From Eledone cirrhosa (lineage: Eukaryota), in NCBI GenBank assembly GCA_964016885.1, contig OZ024740.1, positions 315,084,001 through 315,148,000 on the forward strand: a stretch of 64,000 bases of DNA, in the 5' to 3' direction. The notes under the pieces are model-generated. The model saw only the letters and a list, made by a program, of their open reading frames with translations. It made no database searches and was not told the DNA's origin. The stretch's first letter is position 1, and each line of letters opens with the position of its first letter. This document shows positions 33,735 through 64,000 of the stretch, in pieces. Position numbers and translations under genes: made by a program.

Positions 33735-34183
33735 AGCAAAGGGATATTTAATTTGTTGGTAATTCAACAAATATATATATTTATAACAGTTTCGAAGCAC
33801 TCGACAAGTTTTCTGGAGTATAATATCAATGATATTAATAAATGGAAACCATATTTATTCTATTATATATATTTCAAGGGTACCAAAACTTTGGTACGCT
33901 CTCATCAGATAAAATACAGAGCTTGTTTTATAAATATTGACATATCCATTGAAATATTGACATATCCGGTTCAAGTTTATTCAAGTTTATTCAAGTTTAT
34001 CCAGGTAAAACTTGAACCGTTAAGGTCTCATTCCTGGATATGTCAATATTTATAAAACAAGCTCTGTATTTTATCTGATGAGAGCGTACCAAACTTTTGG
34101 TACCCTTGATATAATAGATAATATAAATAATAGAATAAATATGGTTTTAGAAATATAGTTTCCATTTATTAATATCATTGATA
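33735..34183. mobile_element. Head-to-head PLE 3'-end pair in (TA)n
   Basis: Arms ~33824-33947 and ~34035-34183 are reverse complements; left arm has an extra tail. Confidence 0.85.
33856..33916 (-). ncRNA. Minimal hammerhead ribozyme
   Basis: TATTTTAT-CTGATGA-GAGCGTACCAAAGTTTTGGTACCCTT-GAAA-TATATA-TA-ATAGAATA; the + strand twin at ~34067-34138 has lost GAAA. Confidence 0.8.
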
Positions 34184-34276
34184 TATATATATATATATAT
34201 ATATATATATTCCTTTACCTTTGAGCACATTATTGACAGGGAATAACGAGTTTTAATTTATCGTGATATATATATA

Positions 34277-34460
34277 TATATATATATATATATATATTGA
34301 GTATATGCTGGTTGTTTACCGAAATTCGTTTGTTCGAATTCATATGATTCCAGTTCCTCAGAGAAATAACAACCCAAAGATGGCTGTCACCGAAATATAT
34401 ATAGCAGTACATCTTTAATAAACGAAGCCAAATTTTAAATATTTGATTTAATTATTTTAT
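34277..34460. mobile_element. Internally deleted relative of the 43655-44202 insert
   Basis: Shares ATTGAGTATATG.TGGTTGTTTACCGA tail and GATGGCTGTCACCGAAATATATATAGCAGT. Confidence 0.8.
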
Positions 34461-35812
34461 ATATATATATATATATATATATATTTATATATATATATAT
34501 ATCTGTGTGTGTGTGTGTGTGTGTGTGTGTGTGTGTGTGTGTGTGTGTGTATGACAAGGAAATATGTTTTTGAGCAGCGAGAAATAGAAGCTATCGCCAT
34601 ATTTTTGACTAAAAACATTTTTTAGCCTGATAGTGGGGTTTAGAACCCTCTAAGAAATGGAAAAAGATGAGTACTGACGTATATATATACACACACACAC
34701 ACACATATATATATATATATATATATATATATATATATATATATATATATATATACTTATATATTATGAATCTGTGTGTGTCTGTAAGTGCAATTGTCTA
34801 TCTCTCTGTCAGTCTGTCTATCTGCCTGTCTGTCTGTATATATATATATATATATATATATATATATATATGTACCCATGGACGGACGTGATGTGCATAA
34901 GTATGTGATGTGCGTGATGTGCATAAGTATGTGTGTATATGTTTGTGTGTATGTGTGTGTGTTTCTGTGATATGGCCTATATAGTTATTTAAATGCCCAT
35001 GATGACTCCTCTATCATTCAGTTATTTTAGTTTCAACCTAGTCTCACACCAAGACACTTGGCAAACACCTCAACTTCTAAATTAAAAGTGAAGAATAAAC
35101 AACGAATAAAATATCTAGAAATCTTCTTTAACGCAACACCTCATATTCTTTCAAATATAATAATTATCATCTTACAATTCCAAATTCCACCTTATTATCG
35201 CGGTCTGATGCTATAAATAGTTCTTAGGAAATAATGAATTTATCTTGCATTTACGAGAACAAACGAAGCGATCTCTACAAGATTTGATCGACCTGTTACA
35301 AATAGCAGCCAAATCTCCCTTGAAATTACGTTCTGCTGTCTAAATATATAAAGCCACATTAGATAGTATAACCCTGTATATACAAAAGAGACATGGCTGT
35401 CACATGGCTAGAACCTCTATGATTTACCGGTGGTAACCGTGAACTAAACAACAGCTCCAGGAACAATAATTATATTTCTCCCCATACTGTACTAGAATGG
35501 AACCTCTTTCGTACCTTTCTTTCTCCTTCAAATGGAAAAACCTGAATCAATTCAACCTCAACATTAACTGCTCTAACCTCTAATCCGGTTACCGAGCAGA
35601 ACAGAACCCGAAAGGGCCACAGGCTTGAAAGCGATTCTGGGTTGTACGAAAACTAATACTGGCTCATGTTTCCCTTGTGTTAAACACCAGGGAATATGAA
35701 GTGCCAATCACTACATTACAAGGGAGGTGACAACTGTGACATTAAGATATCAACTGTCTAAAGAAGAGAAAGGTACAAAAAGTGAACTAAGAGATTGAAA
35801 TAACTTAATCAG

Positions 35813-36296
35813 AAATAGACACCACATCGTTACCACCTACATAATAGACACCACATTGTTACCACGTACATAATAGTAACCACATTCTTACCACGTACAT
35901 AATAGACACCACATCGTTACCACTTACATAATAGACACCACATTGTTACCACTTATATAATAGACACCATATTGTTACCACTTATATAATAGACACCACA
36001 TCGTTACCACCTACATAATAGTAACCACATTCTTACCACGTACATAACAGACACCACATCGTTACAACAAACCTACAACACTACCACCTACATAATAGAT
36101 ACCAATCGTTACCACGTACATAACAGACACCACATCGTTACAACAAACCTACAGCGCTACCACCTACATAATAGATACCAATCGTTACCACGTATATAAT
36201 AGAAAACACATCGTTACCACATATATGACAGACACCAGATCGTTACCATGTACACAACAGATACCACATCGTTACCACGTACATAACAGACACCAT
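35813..36296. repeat. ~29-bp minisatellite
   Basis: ATAGACACCACATCGTTACCACGTACATA variants. Confidence 0.9.
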
Positions 36297-36349
36297 ACTC
36301 GATGACTTGTAATAGAAGGACAAGGAATAGCGGTTACTTTTATCAATGA

Positions 36350-36860
36350 TTAAGTGAATCTGCTATCCAGTCATATCTGATATTTTATCCAATAATATAT
36401 GATTGATTTTCTATTGATATCTTATTGACTACCCAGTGATATCCTATTGACTACTTAGTGGTATCTGATTGACTATCCAGTAATATCTTATTGACTACCC
36501 AGTGATATCTTATTGACCACTCAGTGATATGTGATTGACCACTCAGTGATATCTGATTGACCACTCAGTTATATCTGATTCACCATTCAATGATATCTGA
36601 TAGACCACTCAGTGATATCTGATTGACCACTCAGTGATATCTGATTGACCACTCAGTGATATCTGATTGACCACTCAGTTATATCTGATTCACCATTCAA
36701 TGATATCTGATAGACCACTCAGTGATATCTGATTGACCACTCAGTTATATCTGATTGACCACTCAGTGGTATGTAATTAACTATGTGATTAACTAACCAC
36801 TGAGACTTAATTGATATTTGATTGGTCAATTAGTGATTTCTGATCAACTATCTAGTGATA
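36350..36860. repeat. 22-bp minisatellite
   Basis: GATATCTGATTGACCACTCAGT, homogeneous centre and decayed edges. Confidence 0.9.
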
Positions 36861-37256
36861 TCCATACTTTGATTGGATATCGCACAGTTTTACGTTCGTA
36901 CATTTCTCCCAAAGTCATCATCGCCTCATAATTGAAGTGAAATACTTCGAACAAGGAACTCAGCTCAATGAAAGATTACCTGTACTCTATGCCATATACA
37001 CATGCATGTATAGACGTGATCACTCAAACACACAGACACAGACACAGACACACACGTATATGTATATATATATATATATATATATATATATATATATATA
37101 TATATGTGTGTGTGTGTGTGTGTGTGTGTGTATGTGTGTGTGTGTGTACATATATATATATATATACATATATATATATATACGTGTATGTATACGTGTA
37201 TATATATATATATATATATATATATATATATATATATATATATATATATATATATA

Positions 37257-37362
37257 ACGAAGGAAGTGTGGTAAGGAGCCAGATGGACCATAACGCACCA
37301 GAGAACTCAATACTTAAGGTAATAGAGTGGGTAATAGGAAAATGTTTAACATTTTCCTATAT
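37257..37362. mobile_element. Miniature head-to-head insert (tail + ~13-bp inverted arm) in (TA)n
   Basis: Tail homologous to 49766-49850; ATAGGAAAATGTT-T-AACATTTTCCTAT palindrome. Confidence 0.75.
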
Positions 37363-61871: not shown

Positions 61872-61942
61872 TATATATATATATATATATATATATATAT
61901 ATATATATATATATATATATATATATATATATATATATATAT

Positions 61943-62105
61943 ATTTAAGTCGTTTGGAAGCCTCGACAATGCAAATGGATAAATCACCGGGTAACAAGAT
62001 CTTGTTACCCGGAGATTTACCCATTTGCATTGTCGAGGCTTCCAAACGACTTAAAGATATTTATTTATTATTCCACAATGCTTCAAGCAAACTTCAATAC
62101 TCTCA
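61943..62105. repeat. ~110-bp near-perfect palindrome with one-sided extension, in (TA)n
   Basis: TTTAAGTCGTTTGGAAGCC..AACAAGA|TCTTGTT..GGCTTCCAAACGACTTAAA. Confidence 0.85.
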
Positions 62106-62787
62106 TATATATATATATATATATATATATATATATATATATAATATATAGTATATATATATATATATATATATATATATATATATATAATATAATATAT
62201 ATAATATATAGTATATATATATATATATACATATATATAATATAATATATATAATATAATATATATAATATATAGTATATATATATATACATATATATAT
62301 ATTATATATATATATATAGATAATATAAGTATGTACACGTACATACATATATGTATACAGACGTACAGTAGTATGTATATATATATATACATATATGCAC
62401 ACATATATATATATATATACGTATGGATTTACCGAACATTTATTATAATGCTCGGTGTGAGTAACAGCCGTACTAAGAGTGGGAAATGAAATTTCGTTTC
62501 ATTTTTTCCGTTTATATATATAATATAATATATATAACATATATATATATATATATATATATATATATATAATATAATATAATATATATAATATATAGTA
62601 TATATATATATATATATATATATATAATATATAGTATATATAATATATATATATATATAATATATATGTATATATATATATATATATATATATATATATA
62701 TATATATATATATATATATATATATATATATATATATATATATATAAAATATATATATATATAATATATATATATATATATATAATA

Positions 62788-63000
62788 TATGAAAGACGTA
62801 AAATAAGAAAATTTTAAAAATTAAAAATTAACTTACTTACTAAAATTTTAGTAAATTTTAGTAAGTAAGTTAATTTTAGTAAGTAAGTTAATTTTAGTAA
62901 GTAAGTTAATTTTTAATTTTTAAAATTTTCTTATTTTACGTCTTTCATATAATTGTTCTGCATCCCCCTGCATAGAACCACAAAGGTACTAAGACATAAT
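62788..63000. mobile_element. Head-to-head insert in (TA)n with right-side tail
   Basis: Arms ~62788-62848 and ~62893-62951; junction repeats AATTTTAGTAAGTAAGTT three times. Confidence 0.75.
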
Positions 63001-63136
63001 ATATATATTTGCCAGCATGGGTATACATCTGTATACATATGTTGGTAGATATACTAATTCTCTATATATAATATATATATATATATATATATATAATATA
63101 ATATAAGATCAAAAGATGGTTAAAGGAGTTCCATAT

Positions 63137-63205
63137 ATTTTATTATGCGCATTTCAAAAACAAACATCATCAAGCAATAATATTTGTGTTTTCATCAGAT
63201 AAAAC
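63137..63205 (-). ncRNA. Minimal hammerhead ribozyme
   Basis: Reverse-complement twin of 63347-63415. Confidence 0.85.
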
Positions 63206-63346
63206 AGGAGAACATGATATGAAGGCTAAAAAACACTTGTGGATAGTGCAGTTTTAAATCAACATATATCAGTTTTAAATCAACATATGTTGATTTAAAA
63301 CTGCACTATCCACAAGTGTTTTTTAGCCTTCATATCATGTTCTCCT

Positions 63347-63415
63347 GTTTTATCTGATGAAAACAGAAATATTATTGCTTGATGATGTTTGTTTTTGAAA
63401 TGCGCATAATAAAAT
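63347..63415 (+). ncRNA. Minimal hammerhead ribozyme
   Basis: GTTTTAT-CTGATGA-AAACA..TGTTTTT-GAAA-TGCGCA-TA-ATAAAAT; palindromic stem III. Confidence 0.85.
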
Positions 63416-64000
63416 ATATGGAACTCCTTTAACCATCTTTTGATCTTATATTATGCATACTCCAGTCCCACAAACTGTAGAGTGCTTCTTATCCGATATC
63501 TGCATTGCTTTATTGTAATACAATAAAACTCACCTCCTACATATATATATATATATATATATATATATATATATATATATATATATATATATATATATAT
63601 ATATATATATATATATATATATATATATATATATATATATATATATATATATATATATATATATAATATATATATATATATAATATATATATATATATAT
63701 TATATATATATATATATATATATATATATATATATATATATATATATAGATATATATAGATATATATATAGATATATAGATATATATATATAGATATATA
63801 TATATAATATATATATATATAATATATATATATATATATATTATATATATATATTATATATATAGAAGCTCCTTCTATAAAATAAAAAAATTTTACTCTG
63901 CCATGTATTGAGTACCTTACTTACTGTGGTTATCCGCGACTCAACCCGGGAACTACGTATATAATATATATATATATATATATATATATATATATATATA

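Follow-up and report, generated by a model that had tools for sequence, protein, structure and literature searches.

In a 64,000-nucleotide stretch of the Eledone cirrhosa genome (contig OZ024740.1, positions 315,084,001 to 315,148,000; G000:C1:315084001-315148000), hereafter the window, Penelope-like elements (PLEs) of the Hydra clade end a few nucleotides before one or the other of two RNA hairpins of the same build. The shorter arms of their inverted insertions stop just before the first hairpin (H1), and the longer arms, which carry a one-sided tail, stop just before the second (H2). The pair is a real, apparently clade-wide cis element, as judged from sequence comparisons. A sequence-only reading of the window had pointed to H1 as a cis signal bound by the PLE reverse transcriptase (RT) that fixes an internal start for target-primed reverse transcription. 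That proposal fits all of our tests, including the presence of H2 at the long end and the covariation of the stems, whereas binding by the RT is what we infer. The earlier reading missed H2, the identity of the tail as the H1-H2 spacer, the upstream hammerhead, and the rule that short ends are paired with long ones.

The source genome (3.0 Gb, 1796 contigs) is rich in microsatellites. The coding PLE of the window, family A, has a 5'-truncated open reading frame (ORF) at 54661-55650 (-) that encodes an RT thumb, a CxCx5C linker, and a GIY-YIG endonuclease at the C terminus, motifs as in section 11 of PMC8557442. Genome matches to the frame at 54661-55680 (-) number at least 119, with 96-100% identity. 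The Hydra clade was described by Craig et al. in 2021 (PMC8557442) as having RWK/R, DKT, the CxCx5C linker, and, at the C terminus, a GIY-YIG domain without CCHH. The ORFs of family A, family D, and the 41.1-kb family have RWR, of the RWK type that replaces GxKF/Y, and RWK stands at the GxKF/Y position in an alignment of relatives. The change from DKG to DKT is seen as SDKT in L031 and as an invariant K116 with DKTT in 47 relatives, in which C564-C566-C572 (the linker) and C662-C665, E668, N681, and C690-H692 (GIY-YIG without CCHH, with CxxC and CxH flanking E and N) are also invariant. Copies in this genome are inserted into (TA)n, and the hammerhead of a relative (L095) almost matches that of Hydra-1_Amil by eye. 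By these motifs the three window families traced to an ORF (A, D, and 41.1-kb) are Hydra-clade PLEs; the stubs at 33.8, 43.7, 56.1, 56.9, 62.8, 63.1, and 63.9 kb are provisionally placed in the clade from architecture only. Assignment to the Naiad/Chlamys PLEs, which have an N-terminal endonuclease and no hammerhead, was ruled out because the endonuclease here is C-terminal. The predicted protein fold (pLDDT 90.5) has as its best structural matches the TERTs 3du5 and 6zdq (TM 0.3). There was no Pfam match for the window ORF piece, no PDB match by sequence, and no relative among viral contigs by protein or by alignment search. A dimer prediction for residues 1-490 scored 0.00, no evidence in either direction.

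The family A insertion consists of a long-ended arm at 53570-55650 (-), defined by blastn against a natural full-length copy and comprising the truncated ORF, a 1-kb 3' untranslated region (UTR), and the tail, and of a short-ended inverted arm at 55652-55903 (+), which by comparison of the arms ends 2 nt before H1 and then enters (TA)n. H1 lies in the tail at 53612-53656 (-), with a GCUC/GAGC base and a UC bulge. A putative hammerhead-like motif, recognized by eye at 53680-53737 (-), has the variant core CAGAAGA instead of CUGANGA, and its GAAA lies 52 nt before H1. Because the 45 family A loci were found by protein search, their sampling is blind to end type. They provided 64 terminal ends, 37 short and 27 long, plus 6 internal copies. 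The ends form sharp peaks relative to the hairpins, as the sequence-only reading had predicted for H1: 28 short ends lie at H1-2 and 18 long ends at H2-3, corresponding to blastn ends at reference positions 89 or 177/178. Nothing extends past H2 except the 6 internal copies, which are the only ones to show H2. Among assembled contigs of public run X1, which may derive from the sample used for the assembly, 144 and 77 enter (TA)n at these respective positions; no RNA run was listed as carrying a match. The sequence between H1 and H2 is thus the tail, given that long ends fall about 3 nt short of H2; in the window copy it spans 89 nt (53570-53658, -), ending 3 nt before the point at which full-length copies continue into H2 (seen in L147:1460-1475).

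The rule that the tail equals the spacer was used to predict H2 in five other window families. For family D, 312 matches extend 3 nt past the long end and then enter GCTCC, compared with 0 for a reversed control, and one copy (L182) has the complete H2 hairpin and a Hydra ORF. In the family D stub of the window (49768-50014), the long end falls 3 nt before H2, at about 49768, and the short end 5 nt before H1, at 50014; an apparent class of family D ends at -14 was an artefact of exact extension, the true offset being -5. Its H1 (49815-49838, -) is ACUC/GAGU, and full-length copies have H2, GCUC/GAGC, 78 nt further on, together with the Hydra ORF. For the 41.1-kb family (H1 at 41110-41159, -; stub at 41065-41411 with the long end at about 41065 and the short end at 41411), 5 of 8 matches agreed with the prediction, and both copies examined carry H2, 3-5 nt past the long end, followed by a Hydra ORF. 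In this family too H1 is ACUC/GAGU and H2 is GCUC/GAGC, a compensatory pair change within one element, as in family D. Families B and C and the element at L086, all in the same genome, also have both hairpins.

Full-length copies share one layout, in which the RNA runs from the hammerhead through 45-70 nt to H1, then through the spacer to H2, which lies just before the start codon, 10-65 nt ahead of the AUG. In 10 elements, 62-106 nt separate H2 from H1. Most elements have a hammerhead core, or the 3' half of one, 45-70 nt upstream of H1, and the core is canonical at 33.8, 43.7, and 63.4 kb, in family B, and in most contigs from other hosts. In families A and D, which are very abundant, CAGAAGA and GAGAAGA take the place of CUGANGA in hammerhead-like folds (L182:60-145) that may be variant ribozymes or inactive. 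At L086:7180-7310 both hairpins have the atypical 3' flank UUAAC, and the pair at L114 shares GCU; the two hairpins of one element may evolve together. The 5' junctions of insertions often lie about 10-25 nt upstream of H1 or H2 (L145, L151, L124, L106, L037, and the 37.3- and 63.9-kb window insertions), as if cDNA synthesis may also stall there.

All 12 hairpins listed by the sequence-only reading were present at their coordinates and strands, and in all nine inverted pairs that it named the short arm enters (TA)n 2-5 nt before the stem. The short arms end at -3 (33.8 kb), -5 (37.3 kb), -3 (41.1 kb), -4 (43.7 kb), -5 (49.8 kb), -2 (53.6 kb), -3 (56.1 kb), -3 or -4 (62.8 kb), and -4 (63.1 kb) relative to H1. 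At each of the nine junctions the last letters are TA, TAT, or ATAT, in register with the target, and thus the offsets are upper bounds on the templated sequence. The proposed range of -2 to -5 held for these nine pairs, but two other families have offsets as large as -6 to -11. Head-to-head stubs with H1 lie at 33782-34189 (hammerhead core; H1 33799-33819, -), 43653-44205 (hammerhead core; H1 43707-43746, -; H2 not found), 56096-56427 (H1 56355-56379, +), 62786-62998 (H1 of the GUUC/GAAC type, 62955-62978, +), and 63098-63540 (minimal hammerhead; H1 63459-63483, +; H2 not found). The family D-type tail stub at 37257-37358 (-; H1 37305-37328) has as its partner arm just a 12-bp mini-palindrome ending 5 nt before H1. 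No partner arm was found in the window for the hairpins at 27.1 kb (27105-27128, in a diverged D-like stub at 27056-27178, -), 56.9 kb (56951-56973, in a tail stub at 56922-56973, -), and 63.9 kb (63895-63913, in a tail stub at 63870-63963, +); a relative of the last, at L065, is a short-plus-long pair.

The consensus of both hairpins is RCUC-stem-loop-UH-GAGY-RCU, with four base pairs at the foot (RCUC/GAGY), the 2-nt bulge on the 3' side, and one more pair above it. Base pairing was evaluated in 38 position-defined, hand-picked hairpins (39 were listed and one pattern failed). Pair 1 is G-C in 29 and A-U in 9; pair 2 is C-G in 36, U-A in 1, and mismatched in 1; pair 3 is U-A in 36 and A-U in 2; and pair 4 is C-G in all 38. 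Pair 5, above the bulge (n = 37), is U-A in 20, C-G in 16, and U-G in 1, and it differs between the hairpins, being C-G in 11 of 11 H2 and U-A in 20 of 27 H1. All four Watson-Crick types occur at pairs 6-8. Thus, pairs 1, 3, and 5-8 covary, which supports the covariation expected by the earlier reading in this hand-picked, related set. The 3' flank RCU is conserved as part of the motif (R 35/38, C 36/38, U 34/38). The bulge is UU in 18, UC in 12, and UA in 8, the 2-nt UH form noted earlier; one family has UG. Inner stems are frequently just 1-3 bp, and the half-sites are 6-65 nt apart with a fixed one-sided bulge. In a model-fitted alignment of 27 distinct rows, 97% of positions were paired and covariation was 0.489 versus 0.163, a level reached by 0 of 500 shuffles; sliding the register reduced pairing to 15-54%.

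A descriptor with an inner stem of at least 3 bp and a loop of at most 30 nt matched 11 sites in the window versus a mean of 1.35 (maximum, 4) in 20 block-wise dinucleotide shuffles. Equal frequency in shuffled sequence, which the earlier reading had named as counting against the motif, was not seen with this descriptor. The loosest descriptor matched 18 window sites versus 10.95 in shuffles. Across evenly spaced genome stretches totalling 600 kb, the first descriptor gave 35 matches versus 15.8, a strict one including the 3' flank gave 23 versus 12-16, and the loosest gave no excess (137 versus 130). The slight excess with the strict descriptor indicates that the motif is too short for context-free scanning. 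Asymmetric inverted pairs were gathered from the same 600 kb without using the motif. Of the 24 rows, 3 that lacked a TA-terminated tail were dropped and one duplicate was merged, which left 20. The motif lay within 12 nt of the divergence point in 9 of the 20 pairs, representing 6 families, versus 2.1% for shuffled tails; P was 5e-12 for 10 of 21 pairs, computed before the duplicate was merged. The other 11 pairs comprised 4 of a CCHH-type PLE family, 1 Neptune-like element, 2 with apparently mutated copies of the motif, and 4 others. Because pairs without the motif include CCHH-type and Neptune-like PLEs, the motif is a trait of a clade rather than of PLEs in general. The flanks of the window families had no blastn similarity to one another at E < 1e-3. 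The original description as unrelated PLE-type families is too broad, because the three ORF-linked families all belong to the Hydra clade and CCHH-type PLEs lack the motif.

MAFFT left the stems unaligned, and hence a covariance model was built from 5 sequences. At E ≤ 10 it detected 8 of the 12 hairpins in the window, including a sequence used for training, and missed those at 41.1, 43.7, 53.6, and 62.9 kb. Its matches to 8 units of a 46-bp satellite (31.4-31.8 kb) and to 2 weak sites were taken as false; the weak score of this tandem repeat (31340-31817) against the model is probably due to chance. Rfam gave no window match at gathering scores, hammerheads included, and none in six loci at E ≤ 5.

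Short and long ends are paired. All 15 clean head-to-head pairs of family A combine a short and a long end (binomial P = 2e-5 if ends are independent), as do all 28 of family D, for which the query contained the tail. Family B was kept out of the pair statistics, its 3' ends having shared downstream sequence. The two arms are copies of one 3' region, and which of them is longer varies; many insertions are single-armed. Family D also forms head-to-tail arrays of 3-4 units with a period of about 3.54 kb (G000:C1:437200343-437210966, C1:91476610-91487267, and C2:320551593-320558711). At L185 (G000:C2:356029900-356030800) there is a 299-bp head-to-tail non-coding array with the order hammerhead, H1, H2, and ORF start, which is retrozyme-like and arose by internal deletion of family D. 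A 257-bp spacing occurs besides the 299-bp period.

Relatives with 36-48% identity are encoded at 20 loci (L102-L121) in bacterial genome bins from sponge, clam, and other samples; these contigs are probably host DNA contamination. Eight of the 20 reach the ORF start, with 6 intact 5' UTRs, 1 truncated (H2 only), and 1 without a UTR. Two hairpins are present in all 6 intact 5' UTRs, with a mismatch in H1 of L103 and with H1 of L106 clipped there but complete in the 3' copy; in two cases GCAC/GUGC stands in for GCUC/GAGC. The 3' ends fit the rule where readable, with long ends at -4/-5 in L106 and L108 and a short end at -3 in L110, judged against L119. In the published consensuses (PMC8557442, File S7, by eye), the motif is visible in 4 of 6, degenerate in one, and absent in one. 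Hydra-1_Ajap has both hairpins at its start, and its 3' end halts short of H1; Hydra-2_Ajap and Hydra-2_Amil have H1 within the tail; Hydra-1_Obim has one 5' UTR hairpin, with a G-U pair; and Hydra-1_Crog has two degenerate candidates. Among the 9-nt motif strings found in the available supplement, in which line breaks may hide some, 4 are at Hydra termini and 2 inside Naiad/Chlamys bodies. A metagenome scan with one protein gave 7 loci, 4-5 of them from one Hydra-1_Amil-like family, and in the close Hydra-1_Amil relatives L095-L098 the hammerhead is followed only by a near-palindromic ACUC/GAGU stem.

From these sequence patterns, it is likely that the element protein binds each hairpin and that target-primed reverse transcription starts just 5' of it. 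The protein would grip the foot of each hairpin, the endonuclease would nick the (TA)n target, and the freed target 3' end would anneal to UA or UAU in the A/U-rich strand 2-11 nt upstream of the hairpin, where reverse transcription would begin. With the start upstream of the hairpin, the bound hairpin would never be copied. We regard the chances as about even that one particle with two RT sites primes both ends of the cut target; such a particle would hold H1 and H2 and prime from both sides of the cut, and the two overlapping cDNAs would be joined head to head. Long-ended ORF copies need H2 downstream of the ORF and thus a tandem or circular template. The approximately 3.5-kb head-to-tail arrays and the 299-bp non-coding array are candidate tandem sources, and circular RNA would serve equally. 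The full design, programmed twin priming, is one we put forward tentatively and rate somewhat short of even: one tandem or hammerhead-circularized RNA would offer H1 and H2 to the two RT sites of one particle, each priming one side of a (TA)n double-strand cut.

The ends could instead be formed at the DNA level, if cDNA passed through the hairpins and the GIY-YIG endonuclease then recognized the H1 and H2 palindromes, as cDNA hairpins or as duplex, and cut beside them to resolve an intermediate. The tail was ascribed to endonuclease-mediated resolution in PMC8557442, the D. virilis endonuclease required the tail for plasmid cutting (PMC11167929), and dimer cutting at H1 and H2 would likewise yield short-plus-long pairs. 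However, half-sites 6-65 nt apart with a fixed one-sided bulge are unlike a duplex site, G-U exceeds A-C on the sense strand (weakly), the microhomology of the junctions to (TA)n suits primer annealing, and the Poseidon tail was set in vitro by RT start sites on RNA (PMC11167929). We consider DNA-level resolution improbable. Cleavage or 3'-end formation of the RNA just upstream of the hairpins, with the RT starting at a true RNA 3' end in the manner of a long interspersed element, would accord with the family A offsets, which are mostly -2/-3. Nuclease sites typically show such sharp ends beside a conserved stem whose foot is sequence-specific. The offsets elsewhere track the nearest TA or TAT (-2 to -11) rather than a fixed distance, RNA cleavage leaves the short-plus-long pairing unexplained, and the Poseidon enzyme initiates internally on uncut RNA (PMC11167929), all of which make this route quite unlikely. 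Least likely of all, at a very low probability, is that the hairpins serve translation control or mRNA packaging and that A/U-rich microhomology alone sets the ends. The position of H2 10-65 nt ahead of the AUG and the presence of TAT within 10 nt upstream of 30 of the 38 hairpins would suit this, but many other TA/TAT sites in the 1-kb 3' UTR and the spacer stay unused, and the non-coding array retains both hairpins. A rather unlikely but more substantial alternative concerns the pairing step only: the RT would start beside the hairpins, and the arms would arise by two separate ordered events or by fold-back of a single cDNA, with no two-site particle. Single-armed insertions are frequent, the arms copy the same region with either one longer, and head-to-head arms have been ascribed to self-priming on an antisense template (PMC3846280). 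Yet independent events predict that about half of the pairs would be of the same type, whereas all 15 in family A are mixed, and simple fold-back would give identical ends.

Several observations weigh against priming beside H1 and H2 as the source of both ends. DNA-level resolution predicts identical junctions, and the weak strand test leaves room for it: G-U exceeds A-C by 4 to 1 inside helices and by 5 to 3 overall. The covariation figures are inflated because the hairpins were hand-picked and are related, and in 12 folds the free-energy z ranged from -1.5 to +1.6, the base stems often forming and some not. Searches for H2 gave 0 matches for the 63.4-kb family, which yielded no internal copy, and 2 for the 43.7-kb family, of which the one examined (L183) was not H2. 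Family C ends 11 nt before H1, and one L103 copy ends about 40 nt early. Hydra-1_Amil (File S7, by eye) and similar copies lack a canonical motif. CCHH-type PLEs of the same genome form short-plus-long pairs without it. One short-plus-short pair lies in L089, at the center of a 2.2-kb palindrome, and may have arisen by fold-back at a later time; L089:1600-3900 is a nested palindrome of at least 2.2 kb made of several PLE stubs.

The CCHH-type PLE family, which has a hammerhead, occurs at 58984-59068 (+) and 61224-61689 in the window and at L037, L055, L062, and L083; its 56-nt tail forms a different long stem, without the motif. In the CCHH-type 59.0-kb family, a hairpin of Hydra type that follows the long end was rejected as a one-off chimera (1 match). 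Fold-back insertions without the motif lie at 8653-8907, 20116-20744, and 61870-62167, and the one at 62.0 kb is an asymmetric pair with a tail of about 45 nt. A broken non-LTR (long terminal repeat) retrotransposon with an RT and a restriction-like endonuclease occupies 446-4158 (+), with related 3' pieces at 5465-6754, 7276-8112, 12075-12474, and 53121-53568. Copies of a repeat of about 200 nt resembling a short interspersed element are at 10986-11092, 31895-32137, 32461-32699, 40089-40550, 49340-49573, 57185-57394, 59445-60035, and 61664-61880. An open frame at 15508-16896 (+) has a cysteine-rich end, which we take to resemble an exon of a secreted group III phospholipase A2, and the PLE stubs may lie in or near such a host gene.

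The choice of template, the one-sided tail, and the inverted ends of PLEs, the sister group of telomerase, are a long-standing question, and in vitro work exists for just one PLE, whose binding motif is unmapped. A hairpin that is duplicated, covaries, and predicts both ends within a few bases in several animal hosts is directly testable. It also provides a rule for drawing element boundaries in repeat libraries, a candidate signal for the hijacking of PLEs by retrozyme-like parasites, and a defined RNA ligand for structural work on PLE RTs. If the twin-priming design is true, it would explain the tail, the asymmetric inverted repeats, the pseudo-LTRs, and retrozyme-like parasites; a portable module of about 150 nt would program two start sites for a telomerase-like RT, and other PLE clades may have paired structures of their own.

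Earlier work has already described tails, inverted arms, (TA)n targeting, and hammerheads, as well as internal initiation. The elements described here share with the published Hydra clade a (TA)n target, an inverted 5'-truncated partner, and a one-sided tail, with a candidate counterpart here of its hammerhead near the 3' end, whereas tails here are 62-106 nt rather than 30-40 and units are 3.2-3.5 kb; the available text of PMC8557442 mentions no hairpin or stem-loop and puts the tail down to endonuclease resolution. The main outside support for the proposed mechanism comes from Poseidon_Ac (PAc; Frangieh et al. 2024, PMC11167929), whose tail lies between two internal start sites. This PLE requires RNA 3' of its starts, to +172, and cuts and extends both strands. 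Like the elements here, it has an A/T-rich target; its hammerhead lies upstream, as the candidate hammerheads do here, and it is predicted to form a dimer. In its template a 3'-bulged stem-loop can be made out by eye just past the +111-118 start, unrelated in sequence to the motif here. It belongs to another clade, however, and in the accessible parts of that paper its start is placed in an AC-rich stem-loop without target homology and no conserved downstream motif is defined. In the Hydra-clade elements, the sites lie in the 5' UTR, with 2-6 nt of microhomology and a duplicated motif conserved across hosts. Non-LTR retrozymes, short tandem hammerhead units thought to be mobilized by PLEs (PMC7229834; 10.64898/2026.07.22.740005), have a pattern that the 299-bp array fits; no RT-recruiting hairpin, stem-loop, or bulge is described in the available parts of those two papers. 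We found no description in print of the motif, its duplication, its link to both ends, or the pairing rule, subscription papers and Repbase reports being outside this coverage.

The hairpins show features of an RT-recruiting signal, such as epsilon or the R2 3' UTR, in that their structure is conserved and covaries (in a hand-picked, related set) and their position is fixed relative to starts inferred from 3' junctions. Hepadnaviral epsilon, a bulged stem-loop, brings in the RT and determines where protein-primed synthesis, templated from the bulge, begins. The analogy to epsilon made by the sequence-only reading did not survive: ends lie 2-11 nt outside the stem and are joined to target DNA, and there was no Rfam match. 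Unlike epsilon, the predicted function here involves target DNA as the primer, a start outside the stem, and two copies of the hairpin. The boundary of the telomerase template lies 5' of the template and stops copying; that comparison also fails, because the hairpin here lies on the 3' side of the copied region and does not appear in the copy that it delimits. The likeness to telomerase is in the enzyme, the RT being of a sister family with a predicted fold nearest to TERTs. In twin priming by L1, both target ends prime cDNA and inversion results, with non-overlapping arms and a randomly placed second site. In contrast, both arms of the Hydra-clade elements copy the same region, from two fixed sites.

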